From: a virus
Taxonomy: Duplodnaviria > Heunggongvirae > Uroviricota > Caudoviricetes
Length of the DNA: 11,853 bases
Direction: 5' to 3' (one strand)
Virus record (IMG/VR): IMGVR_UViG_2636416131_000003
Span: 1-11,853 of that record
A program made the position numbers and the translations under genes. Under the pieces are notes generated by a model, which searched no databases, was not told where the DNA came from, and saw only the letters and a program-made list of their open reading frames with translations. Positions 1 through 11,631 of this stretch are shown here, piece by piece; within the stretch, counting starts at the first letter, position 1; each line of letters starts with the position of its first letter.

Positions 1-3832
<3,832 letters not shown>

Positions 3833-3858
<26 letters not shown>

Positions 3859-4378
3859 TCAGCAACCCCGGTATCAGTTCATCCAGCGCGGCTGCTTTGT
3901 TCATGGCTTTGATGATATCCCGTTTCAGGAAATCAACATGTCGGTTTTCCAGTTCCGGAAAACGCCGCTGCACCGACAGGGGGATCCCGTCGAGAATACT
4001 GGCAATTTCACCTGCGATCCGCGACAGCACGAAAGTACAGAATGCGGTTTCCACCACTTCAGCGGAGTCTCTGGCATTTTTCAGCTCCTGTGCGTCGGCC
4101 TGCGCACGCGTAAGTCGATGGCGTTCGTACTCAATAGTCCCTGGCTGGAGATCTGTCTCGCTGGCCTGCCGCAGTTCTTCAACTTCCCGGCGCAGCTTTT
4201 CGTTCTCAATTTCAGCATCCCTTTCGGCATACCATTTTATGACGGCGGCAGAATCATAAAGCACCTCATTACCCTTGCCACCGCCTCGCAGAACGGGCAT
4301 TCCCTGCTCCTGCCAGTTCTGAATGGTACGGATACTCGCACCGAAAATATCAGCCAGCTGCTTTTTGTTGACTTCCAT
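3833..4378 (-). CDS. nu1: Terminase small subunit Nu1 (181 aa)
   Basis: MEVNKKQLADIFGASIRTIQNWQEQGMPVLRGGGKGNEVLYDSAAVIKWYAERDAEIENEKLRREVEELRQ... matches lambda Nu1 (the DLP12 equivalent is NohD) in sequence and length. The 3' end overlaps the A start, as in lambda. Confidence 0.93.
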
Positions 4379-4379
4379 T

Positions 4380-4600
4380 GTTCATTCCACGGACAAAAAC
4401 AGAGAAAGGAAACGACAGAGGCCAAAAAGCTCGCTTTCAGCACCTGTCGTTTCCTTTCTTTTCAGAGGGTATTTTAAATAAAAACATTAAGTTATGACGA
4501 AGAAGAACGGAAACGCCTTAAACCGGAAAATTTTCATAAATAGCGAAAACCCGCGAGGTCGCCGCCCCGTAACCTGTCGGATCGCCGGAAAGGACCCGAA
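4380..4600 (-). other. cos: cos site (cosB, cosN, cosQ); the 12-nt cohesive-end sequence cosN is at 4556-4567
   Basis: The + strand at 4556-4567 is AGGTCGCCGCCC, the reverse complement of the lambda cohesive end GGGCGGCGACCT. Flanking sequence matches the lambda left end (CGCGGGTTTTCGCTATTTATGAAAATTTTCCGG...) and right end (...CCGACAGGTTACG) as I recall them. It lies immediately upstream of Nu1. Confidence 0.85.
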
Positions 4601-4766
4601 AAATGATAATAATTATCATCTACATATCACAACGTGCATCTACGCCATCAAACCACGTCAAATAATCAATTATGACGCAGGTATCGTATTAATTGATCTG
4701 CATCAACTTAACGTAAAAACAACTTCAGACAATACAAATCAGCAACACTGAATACGGGGCAACCTC

Positions 4767-4961
4767 ATGTCAACTAAGAACAGAACCCGCAGAACAACAA
4801 CCCGCAACATCCGCTTTCCTAACCAAATGATTGAACAAATTAACATCGCTCTTGAGCAAAAAGGGTCTGGGAATTTCTCAGCCTGGGTCATTGAAGCCTG
4901 CCGTCGGAGACTAACGTCAGAAAAGAGAGCATATACATCAATCCAAAGTGATGATGAATAA
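4767..4961 (+). CDS. Small hypothetical protein (64 aa), predicted ribbon-helix-helix (Arc/MetJ/CopG-like) DNA-binding fold
   Basis: ORF MSTKNRTRRTTTRNIRFPNQMIEQINIALEQKGSGNFSAWVIEACRRRLTSEKRAYTSIQSDDE has a basic N-terminus. The segment IRFPNQMIEQINIALEQKGSGNFSAWVIEACRRRL aligns by eye with the Arc/Mnt pattern (R-x-P, hydrophobic helix, G-x-S-x-N, second helix). I believe a similar small ORF exists near the right end of lambda, but I cannot confirm that. The ribosome-binding site is weak. Confidence 0.5.
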   Translation: MSTKNRTRRTTTRNIRFPNQMIEQINIALEQKGSGNFSAWVIEACRRRLTSEKRAYTSIQSDDE

Positions 4962-5320
4962 ACATCCCGGTTTCTTCCACCATCGCACCGGAAAAGCGAC
5001 TATGAGGGTAACCCTGCGTCTGTCAGCACAGTAAAACCCGGTGTGCATCGTTTTTGATTATTCCCGCACACTCACGCAGAAGGAATTCCCCGTCGGGCTA
5101 CGGTCATGGTTAATGCGGGAATACGGCGACGATACAGCGCAGCTAAAAGGGTAATGGACAGAAAGAGCGGTTTATTTCATTCCACAGGATTCTGAGTGCC
5201 CCCCTCCTCCAATAGGCTGAGCATCCACCTATATAGTTTTAATTTTCATCAATCCATTTAACTATCGTTTAATTGTTGTCACATAGGATTCTGCCGTTTT
5301 TAACAATGCAGGATAATAAG

Positions 5321-7404: not shown

Positions 7405-8502
7405 ATGAAAAAATTAACAGTGGCAATTTCTGCTGTAGCTGCATCAGTACTGATGGCGATGTCTGCTCAGGCAGCTGAAATTTATAATAAAGACAGTAAC
7501 AAGCTGGATCTGTACGGGAAAGTTAATGCCAAGCACTACTTCTCCTCTAATGATGCAGATGATGGTGATACTACTTATGCCCGTCTTGGCTTCAAAGGTG
7601 AAACCCAAATCAACGATCAACTGACTGGTTTCGGTCAGTGGGAATATGAATTCAAAGGCAACCGCGCTGAATCTCAAGGTTCCTCCAAAGACAAAACCCG
7701 TCTTGCATTTGCAGGCCTGAAATTCGGTGACTACGGCTCAATCGATTACGGCCGTAACTACGGTGTAGCATACGACATCGGTGCGTGGACTGACGTTCTG
7801 CCAGAATTCGGTGGCGATACCTGGACCCAAACAGATGTGTTCATGACTGGTCGCACCACTGGTGTTGCAACCTATCGTAACAACGACTTCTTTGGTCTGG
7901 TTGATGGTCTGAACTTTGCTGCTCAGTACCAAGGCAAAAACGATCGTAGCGATTTCGATAACTACACTGAAGGTAACGGTGATGGCTTCGGTTTCTCTGC
8001 TACCTATGAATACGAAGGATTCGGTATCGGTGCAACTTATGCGAAATCTGATCGTACCGACACTCAAGTTAATGCAGGGAAAGTTCTTCCTGAAGTATTT
8101 GCTTCCGGTAAAAATGCAGAAGTTTGGGCCGCAGGTCTGAAATATGACGCTAACAACATTTACCTGGCCACTACCTATTCTGAAACCCAGAATATGACTG
8201 TATTTGCTGATCACTTCGTTGCTAATAAAGCCCAAAACTTCGAAGCTGTTGCACAATATCAGTTCGATTTCGGTCTGCGTCCGTCCGTTGCTTACCTGCA
8301 ATCTAAAGGTAAAGATCTTGGAGTATGGGGCGATCAGGACTTAGTCAAATATGTTGATGTAGGTGCAACCTATTACTTCAACAAAAATATGTCTACTTTC
8401 GTTGATTACAAAATCAACCTGCTTGACAAAAATGACTTCACTAAAGCACTCGGTGTAAGCACTGATGACATCGTTGCTGTAGGTCTGGTTTACCAGTTCT
8501 AA
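7405..8502 (+). CDS. nmpC: Outer-membrane general porin, NmpC/OmpD/Lc family (365 aa precursor), apparently intact
   Basis: [46 protein letters not shown]... has a signal peptide with an AQA-A cleavage site, porin motifs ([31 protein letters not shown]) and the C-terminal ...GLVYQF with terminal Phe. Its position between Q and S, antisense to the late genes, is as for nmpC in DLP12. There is no IS5 interruption here. Confidence 0.9.
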
Positions 8503-9160: not shown

Positions 9161-9301
9161 TCATACTCCTGCTCCTGTCAGGGTTTTGGCGTAATTCTTC
9201 AGTATTCGGTAATCGGTCAAAACAGAACCGGGGAAACGATATAAGCGCAGATGCCCCCAGCGGTGGCGAAGAAGTTCTGCCATATAAAACTCAAACATCA
9301 T
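9161..9301 (-). CDS. ylcG: Small protein YlcG (46 aa)
   Basis: Hand translation of the minus strand gives [46 protein letters not shown]. It is below the ORF-track size cut-off. The start overlaps the rusA stop. Length and position match ylcG between rusA and quuD in DLP12. Confidence 0.6.
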
Positions 9302-9660
9302 TCATTCCCCATTTCGGTGATGGTCAGTTCCAGCCTCCCACCTTTGGTAACAGGCATCTTCACAACGCGGTAATCAACGACCTGAGCATCATCCAGCCAG
9401 AAACCTGCTTTAGTGAGTGCGTCAAAAGCGGCTTTTTGCAGATTATCCAGGTCACGGCGACGGCGATCCGGCATGTGGCACTCAATGCGGATTTTCACAG
9501 GCATAGCCAGGCCGATATCCAGCATTGCGTTTTTAATGATTCGGGCGACGTTATCGCGGTATGCCTGCCCCTCTGCGCTGACGTGCGTGCGCCCGCGATT
9601 ATGGCGGTAATAGCGATTATTGCTCGGAGGCCAGGGTAATGTGATGCTGTAGGTATTCAC
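9298..9660 (-). CDS. rusA: Holliday-junction resolvase RusA (120 aa), GTG start
   Basis: [120 protein letters not shown] matches E. coli RusA as I recall it. The first codon at 9660-9658 is GTG, overlapping the ybcO stop (GTGA). Confidence 0.92.
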
Positions 9661-9946
9661 GCCTTAATAACCCCCTCTTTCAGCCAGATAACCTGTGTTC
9701 TCGCCATACCTTCCAGCGCGCATTCTTTTGCATATGCAGCATCGACAAAATGTGTGCGGCGGTCGATTTCGTCGTGGCAGGCAGAACATGCAATGGTGGC
9801 AATCAGGTCTGGCGGTTTGGTACCGGTGCCGCACAATCCAGTCAGCCGGATATGTGCCAGTACAGACGTTTCAGGGTTGCCATTACATACGCAGGGATTC
9901 TTACCTGGCATTCCCGACTACGCGCTGCTTTTCTCAAATCAGCCAT
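9657..9946 (-). pseudogene. ybcO: ybcO-like nin-region Cys/His-rich protein (DUF1364-like putative nuclease), apparently disrupted by a 1-nt frameshift
   Basis: A strong RBS (AAGGAGG) precedes the ATG at 9946 and gives MADLRKAARSRECQVRIP, which then runs out of frame and stops after 34 codons. The downstream frame (ORF-track 9657-9911) carries the remainder: ...VCNGNPETSVLAHIRLTGLCGTGTKPPDLIATIACSACHDEIDRR...VIKA. Joining the two with one restored nucleotide near 9892 gives a 96-aa protein. Confidence 0.65.
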
Positions 9947-10109
9947 GATTCCTCCTTGCTGCCAGTCGCAACCATTTTTTATCAACCAGGCTGGCGGTAT
10001 ATCCGAGCAGTGTTGGTATTTCGGAAGGCTTCAGCTCCGGTTTACGCTTACGACGATCTGGTACTCTGTAGATGTGTCCGTTCATGACACGAATAAGCGG
10101 TGTAGCCAT
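9939..10109 (-). CDS. ninE: NinE protein (56 aa)
   Basis: Hand translation gives MATPLIRVMNGHIYRVPDRRKRKPELKPSEIPTLLGYTASLVDKKWLRLAARRNHG, matching lambdoid NinE as I recall it. The ATG overlaps the ybcN stop, and the 3' end overlaps the ybcO RBS and start. Confidence 0.85.
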   Translation of the reverse strand: MATPLIRVMNGHIYRVPDRRKRKPELKPSEIPTLLGYTASLVDKKWLRLAARRNHG

Positions 10110-10828: not shown

Positions 10829-11206
10829 ATGACCAACAAAGAAAACAAAGATAAATATATTAACAAGTTCAAGAAAGAGCTTTCAAAATATATACAACCA
10901 ACTGCTGGAGTGGACATTCAATTATTTAACTCTAAGGATGGTGGTGGTGTAATTAAAGCCACTTTGAATAGAAGTGGAAAAAGAAAATCATCAATTGCAG
11001 GTAATTTTACTAAATTAGGTGAGGCAATTACCTCGAGTGGGCAGAGGGTTTTTGGTGGTGATCTATCAAATGTAAATTTTTACGGAACAAATACGATTTT
11101 TGATGGAGATACAATATTTTTAATTAAATCACCTGATTCAGAGGAGTGGTCATCACAAAAAGCTTCCAAAGACGTAGAGGGCATCGTATTTGGAGGGAAA
11201 AAATGA
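10829..11206 (+). CDS. Hypothetical protein (125 aa), Lys- and Gly-rich, predicted soluble; first gene of an AT-rich two-gene cassette
   Basis: ORF MTNKENKDKYINKFKKELSKYIQPTAGVDIQLFNSKDGGGVIKATLNRSGKRK...GIVFGGKK is in an AT-rich region (roughly one-third G+C by eye, against more than 50% in flanking phage genes). It is on the strand opposite to the surrounding nin-region genes. A TATACT -10-like hexamer lies at 10787-10792. I do not recognise the family. Confidence 0.6.
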   Translation: MTNKENKDKYINKFKKELSKYIQPTAGVDIQLFNSKDGGGVIKATLNRSGKRKSSIAGNFTKLGEAITSSGQRVFGGDLSNVNFYGTNTIFDGDTIFLIKSPDSEEWSSQKASKDVEGIVFGGKK

Positions 11207-11631
11207 TTAACATTACTACTAAGGATGGCACTCAAGTCAGTGGTGAAGTAAGAGATCTAGTAATTCTTCTTGAAACTGATGGAAAAACGGTGTCTGATTA
11301 TTTGCAGCCAATCCCTCCCAAAAAAGATACACACTGGAGCATGATTTTCATTCCGGTAGCAATTTATATACTACTTAATCTTGTATACATTATTGCTCAC
11401 CCATTATTTCCTGAAAAATATCTAAAAACATCAACATCTATATTTCTATTCATTTCCTTCATATTAAGTGCAATAGTAGCATATTTTGTTTTCCATAAAC
11501 ATAAATCTGCCACTCTATCCATATGCAGCTTAGTGTTCTTAGTGTTAATTGTAGGTGCTAACGTAGGGTTTATCAGTTACAGCGACCTAACACAAAAAGC
11601 GACGCAAAAATTAGATAGTTTGTCTAAATAA
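11203..11631 (+). CDS. Hypothetical membrane protein (142 aa): soluble N-terminal region of about 55 aa plus three predicted transmembrane helices; translationally coupled to the upstream ORF
   Basis: The ATG at 11203 overlaps the stop of the upstream ORF (ATGA). The protein MINITTKDGTQVSGEVRDLVILLETDGKTVSDYLQPIPPKKDTHWSMIFIPVAIYILLNLVYIIAHPLF...TSTSIFLFISFILSAIVAYFVFHKHKSATLSICSLVFLVLIVGANVGFISYSD... has three hydrophobic stretches of about 20-23 aa. It shares the AT-rich composition of the upstream ORF. The ORF-track start at 11146 is an upstream extension in the same frame. Confidence 0.6.
   Translation: MINITTKDGTQVSGEVRDLVILLETDGKTVSDYLQPIPPKKDTHWSMIFIPVAIYILLNLVYIIAHPLFPEKYLKTSTSIFLFISFILSAIVAYFVFHKHKSATLSICSLVFLVLIVGANVGFISYSDLTQKATQKLDSLSK

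Follow-up and report, generated by a model that had tools for sequence, protein, structure and literature searches.

YbcO has been classified, on the basis of the 3G27 fold, as a His-Me finger (HNH-like) domain placed in group 7 together with DUF968 (PMC5714182). The protein is predicted to act as a His-Me finger nuclease that binds metal through conserved Cys/His residues, and a literature search on YbcO function yielded this fold-based nuclease prediction and no experimentally shown activity. In the cryptic prophage DLP12 of E. coli K-12, the source of the YbcO structure PDB 3G27, ybcO is intact and sits in the order ninE-ybcO-rusA-ylcG-quuD. Our window, that is, the whole stretch of DNA analyzed (11,853 nt), comprises the entire contig CBWC010000058.1 of the draft assembly GCA_000689315.1 and belongs to a DLP12-like prophage with the same gene order, but its ybcO frame is broken after codon 18. 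On the left, the window breaks off in repeated sequence (IS); on the right, it stops at replication gene P, where the sequence is probably repeated as well. The closest complete relative of the whole window was 98.6% identical. The features considered below are collected in Table 1.

Table 1. Coordinates of the features discussed, numbered from the first letter of the window.
Feature	Position	Strand	Remarks and basis
End of IS3-family insertion sequence	1-376		truncates portal gene
Portal ORF	361-1734	(-)	457 aa instead of 533
Large terminase ORF	3858-1891	(-)	655 aa
Single-base deletion, large terminase gene	2013-2014	gene (-)	CAGGCTC to CAGCTC, + strand; alignment
quuD antiterminator	about 9075-8692	(-)	annotated orthologous loci
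ylcG	9301-9161	(-)	annotated orthologous loci
rusA (Holliday-junction resolvase), intact	9298-9660	(-)	120 aa; direct reading, orthologous loci
ybcO 3' segment	9657-9892	(-)	residues 20-96 and native stop (9659-9657), -1 frame
Premature TGA in original frame	9842-9844	(-)	direct translation
Lesion site	9890-9895	(-)	CCTGCG, against CCTGGCG in intact alleles; alignment to two intact relatives
ybcO 5' segment	9893-9946	(-)	native ATG 9946-9944, codons 1-18 = MADLRKAARSRECQVRIP, original frame
Shine-Dalgarno AAGGAGG of ybcO	9951-9957	(-)	4 nt before ATG, inside ninE 3' end; direct reading
ninE, intact	9939-10109	(-)	56 aa; stop overlaps ybcO codons 2-3
ybcN / ninB-like	10564-10109	(-)	ORF call, annotated orthologous loci

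Direct reading of the minus strand indicated that the frame opened by the ATG at 9946 runs through MADLRKAARSRECQVRIP and then through AYVMATLKRLYWHISG to the TGA at 9844-9842, giving from the native start a 34-aa product that consists of 18 native residues and 16 out-of-frame codons. The adjacent frame carries the remainder of the protein, ...PCVCNGNPETSV...CSACHDEIDRR...KEGVIKA, with its stop at 9659-9657. A mechanical ORF call returned an 84-aa product from the internal ATG at 9911, and the gene calls of GCA_000689315.1 list ybcO as 59 aa and the terminase as 595 aa. The original prediction, made from the sequence of the window, had described an AAGGAGG ribosome-binding site ahead of the ATG at 9946 and a Cys/His-rich remainder in the neighboring frame; the minus-strand reading agreed with both, the remainder extending to the native stop at 9657. 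It had also proposed a TBLASTN comparison with a YbcO protein as a check, and this located the frame switch at residue 18, with residues 1-18 of K-12 YbcO aligned in frame -3 (9946-9893; E=1e-7) and residues 18-96 in frame -2 (9896-9660; E=1e-51).

Alignment to the closest complete genome revealed that exactly one base is absent at 9891/9892, where the + strand reads ACG-CAGGG against ACGCCAGGG. The lost base is one G of a GG doublet on the coding strand, the other G being retained at 9892, and the lesion removes Gly19 and shifts the ybcO frame by -1. The deletion predicted near 9892, together with the loss of a Gly codon, was thus borne out by a gap at 9891/9892. A 451-nt query across ybcO matched many complete E. 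coli genomes at 99.8%, with 452 nt in the subject, so the single gap is the only difference from those genomes. The deletion site falls in a Dcm site (CCTGG).

Re-insertion of one G produced a 291-nt ORF encoding the 96-aa product that had been anticipated, and this restored protein had the same sequence as the E. coli 55989 YbcO (100% identity) and differed from the YbcO of K-12 DLP12 at 2 of its 96 positions (G10S and G71A). The restored YbcO matched PF07102 with 140.6 bits over profile positions 2-92 of 92 and PDB 3g27 over all 96 residues (E=3e-62), in support of the proposed YbcO/DUF1364 homology. When the two pieces were taken separately, the 34-aa fragment covered profile positions 2-19 with 19.6 bits, by itself under the curated gathering score of 29.9 bits, and the 84-aa fragment covered positions 17-92 with 109.7 bits. 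The YbcO domain is therefore not contained in one uninterrupted frame; its break, at profile position ~18, separates a part in frame -3 from a part in frame -2. Intact homologues start with MADLRK and not at the Met corresponding to 9911, and the N-terminus is conserved, the 92-position Pfam model including the N-terminal 18 residues; the condition that would have refuted the original prediction thus did not hold. The frameshift parts Cys13 from Cys21, Cys54, Cys57, and His58, and the shifted frame creates a new Cys two residues before Cys21 (PCVCNG). The locus shows the features by which a frameshift pseudogene is recognized, namely, a 1-nt indel relative to near-identical intact orthologues and a premature stop after 34 codons.

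The distribution of the deletion among other genomes was informative. A search with a 71-mer carrying the deletion found no exact match in any of 5,426 complete E. coli genomes; 1,471 of these matched the 71-mer, all at 98.6% and all with the extra base. A 43-mer spanning the deletion likewise had no match in GTDB species-representative genomes. By exact-sequence look-up, the 84-aa product was found on 11-12 contigs from other samples, this independent support consisting of draft or Logan assemblies: the NCBI assembly GCA_030203555.1 and the Logan assemblies SRR11018285, DRR589002, SRR29061239, SRR23867118, SRR9668671, and ERR10434805 were among the sources, and the samples span NCBI, SRA, DRA, and ENA. 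The window's own assembly was absent from this look-up because its gene call was 59 aa. All seven loci fetched from other samples (7/7) contained the exact 71-mer with the deletion and had the flanking gene set of the window in common, and they differed from one another by 1-5 SNPs or by one different porin allele. The identical intact YbcO, in contrast, was present in at least 1,000 contigs whose flanks varied, compared with 11 contigs for the truncated form.

Three readings compete with an inherited pseudogene, and the one that the original prediction had left standing is an error of sequencing or assembly, in which the source genome would really read CCTGGCG and the draft contig would have dropped a base. 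Such an error would fit a window that makes up a complete contig (11,853 nt) of the draft assembly GCA_000689315.1 and a deletion seen in none of the complete genomes (0/5,426); moreover, a contig of another run, identical in other respects, lacks the terminase deletion (2013) of the window, so that this family of assemblies contains at least one indel that is unstable or uncertain. Nevertheless, multi-kilobase contigs of at least seven other samples, put together with different pipelines, offer no route across the site other than the one with the ybcO deletion, and a GG doublet is not an error-prone homopolymer. All contigs with the deletion share the same flanking haplotype, and the identical intact allele occurs on many other backgrounds; this linkage is the pattern of inheritance and not that of a context-dependent error. 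The occurrence of one haplotype in several non-identical strains sequenced in different places argues for an inherited mutation rather than an artefact. Judged from these sequences, the ybcO deletion is a real, inherited mutation, and the error alternative, which we consider highly improbable, was rejected with the same deletion present in 11-12 mutually non-identical contigs.

The two remaining readings accept the deletion and suppose that the allele is still useful. Recoding would yield a full-length YbcO by a -1 ribosomal slip or by transcriptional slippage, leaving the gene functional or regulated. The frame would be restored by a shift of -1, the C-CCU context permits re-pairing of tRNA-Pro in the P site from CCU to CCC in AUC-CCU-GCG, and the slipped product, ...RIPCVCNG..., would be the wild-type protein with the single change G19C, as deduced from the sequence. 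The overlap of the two frames, from the upstream stop of the -1 frame to the TGA at 9844-9842, contains no X-XXY-YYZ heptamer, however, and the slippery context is limited to the single-tRNA C-CCU, with nothing to suggest a slip above background. The downstream 100 nt (9900-9800, minus strand) had a predicted MFE of -23.9 kcal/mol, no better than that of shuffled sequences (mean, -24.15; z = 0.08), and the Rfam search of the window gave no match near the frameshift site. Nor is the shift conserved (0 of the 1,471 complete genomes matching the 71-mer; the intact form on at least 1,000 contigs against 11), and the allele derives recently from an intact gene whose sequence is otherwise found unchanged in other genomes. 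Programmed -1 frameshifting, for which the heptamer, the downstream structure, and the conservation are all absent, is not supported by these sequence features, and we regard recoding as exceedingly improbable. A split gene, in which the 84-aa ORF would be translated from the ATG at 9911 (MPGKNPCVCNG...) with some activity kept, also seems most unlikely. That ORF keeps 76 of the 92 Pfam positions in its 109.7-bit match, gains a Cys near the lost one, and is predicted by gene callers, but it lacks profile positions 1-16, including the conserved Cys13. The ATG at 9911 is preceded by GUCGGGA-AUG, in which the only purine-rich run (GGGA) abuts the start with zero spacing, and the ORF lies inside the translated 34-aa ORF; the missing Shine-Dalgarno spacing and this position make efficient independent initiation at 9911 unlikely. 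A natural family of short YbcO proteins did not emerge, and the 75-80-aa cluster members examined as natural short forms were contig-edge partials or rare truncations. That the allele is alive in some form, through a low-level tRNA-Pro slip giving the G19C YbcO or through an active 84-aa His-Me finger protein, strikes us as very doubtful; were it so, there would be an E. coli lineage with a recoded or remodelled nin-region nuclease.

Collectively, our data suggest that ybcO in this DLP12-like lambdoid prophage of E. coli is very probably a true frameshift pseudogene that has been inherited. The inherited pseudogene would have originated from the spontaneous loss of one G from the GG doublet, converting CCTGGCG to CCTGCG on the coding strand (9895-9890), an event that would have arisen once in one prophage lineage and passed to several strains. 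Ribosomes would still begin at the unchanged, well-placed start at 9946, make the 34-aa peptide, and stop at the TGA at 9844-9842. The remaining 77 codons, encoding three of the four conserved Cys residues and the CSACH motif, would be left out of frame, and this 77-codon 3' part would have no credible initiation site of its own; the 84-aa ORF is thus presumably not expressed. The separation of Cys13 from Cys21, Cys54, Cys57, and His58 makes a loss of YbcO function a reasonable expectation. Because the nin region, in which ybcO lies, is non-essential, the loss would be tolerated. The ybcO stop and the GTG start codon of rusA overlap in GTGA, and rusA is probably translationally coupled to ybcO. 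Owing to this overlap, premature termination 180 nt before rusA should abolish the coupling as a side effect and could exert polarity on rusA, which could matter where the expression of prophage RusA is of interest, as in the suppression of ruv defects. The gene would be best annotated as a frameshifted ybcO pseudogene and not as an 84-aa or 59-aa 'DUF1364 protein'.

A second single-nucleotide frameshift in the window had also been predicted, and it is present in the terminase gene at 2013. The deletion replaces the last ~26 residues, giving 655 aa instead of 641 aa, and it was found in no complete E. coli genome. The exact 655-aa product also occurs in three contigs, from GCA_000832005.1, SRR1765575, and ERR499276; the portal gene is intact in the contigs of SRR1765575 and ERR499276, and ybcO is intact in GCA_000832005.1. 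The coexistence of the terminase deletion with an intact ybcO indicates that the two frameshifts were independent events. Over 347-5255, the IS junction included, the ERR3469352 contig matches the window at 100%, but it has an intact terminase. The terminase deletion and the IS insertion thus display a four-gamete pattern, which may reflect gene conversion between co-resident lambdoid prophages, recurrence, or assembly collapse of two copies. The original prediction had held that, if the ybcO lesion were a sequencing error, the same could be true of the terminase lesion. The two stand on different footings: error was rejected for ybcO, and the terminase lesion is less certain because of the otherwise identical contig with an intact terminase. 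In both single-base deletions, the missing G belonged to a GGC context (minus strand, CTGGCG to CTGCG; + strand, CAGGCT to CAGCT), probably by coincidence. One systematic error behind both was considered, and for ybcO the haplotype linkage across independent samples speaks against it. A usable rule emerges: to validate a single-base lesion of a draft contig when reads are not at hand, one can look for the exact truncated product in independent assemblies. The ybcO lesion passes this test firmly, the terminase lesion only in part.

The ybcO deletion had also been read as a sign of mutational decay in a cryptic prophage, a claim that was sustained in part. The gene order ybcN-ninE-ybcO-rusA-ylcG-quuD, the same as in annotated E. 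coli genomes, fits a lambdoid nin region located before Q. The nin region is dispensable for lambda growth, as in the nin5 deletion, and the loss of a gene within it is on its own no proof of a cryptic prophage. The portal gene provides stronger support for decay: its truncation by the IS element is the strongest evidence for a defective prophage, and the IS/portal junction was also present in the independent run ERR3469352. The ybcO lesion and the IS-cut portal together mark the prophage as defective. Within the IS segment, the Rfam sRNA isrC gave a full-length match of 150 bits (186-308, minus strand), and its position inside the IS indicates that this 'sRNA' match is IS sequence here.

Other parts of the window carry variable cargo. 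A porin gene of the OmpC/NmpC-like type (7405-8502, + strand) lies between quuD and the lysis cassette, and nearly all mismatches and indels relative to close relatives cluster there, with ~100 of 139 mismatches falling in the porin gene. One of the contigs with the ybcO deletion differs in its porin allele, its backbone being otherwise near-identical, which points to replacement of the porin allele by recombination. Between replication gene P and ybcN/ninB, two overlapping ORFs on the opposite strand (10829-11206 and 11203-11631, both +) match phrog_18061 and phrog_16940, respectively, and the ORF at 11203-11631 has a weak, sub-threshold match to a 7TM-like Pfam family. In relatives, the same slot is occupied by BstA_C, by NADAR with PRTase-CE, or by an AAA_15/AAA_21 ATPase, so the P-ybcN slot looks like a variable moron or defence hotspot.

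The closest intact counterpart is the ybcO of E. coli 55989 / O104:H4 (WP_000774504.1), to which the 451 nt of our locus are identical save for the one missing base; unlike ours, that gene is intact. At the position corresponding to 2013 of the window, the terminase of E. coli 55989 is likewise intact, and the prophage of that strain has rusA and a terminase annotated as frameshifted. The lesions in the two prophages thus lie in different genes and at different sites, suggesting that the same type of prophage decays independently, and routinely, in different lineages. Pseudogenes flagged as 'frameshifted' by PGAP in defective lambdoid prophages of E. coli and Shigella resemble our locus in having a single-base indel in a conserved phage gene, and these prophages also share with ours an IS insertion in a morphogenesis gene, with no difference of substance. 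The ybcO lesion is not a new mechanism; the pseudogene is an ordinary one, and both its parent gene and this type of defective prophage are familiar.
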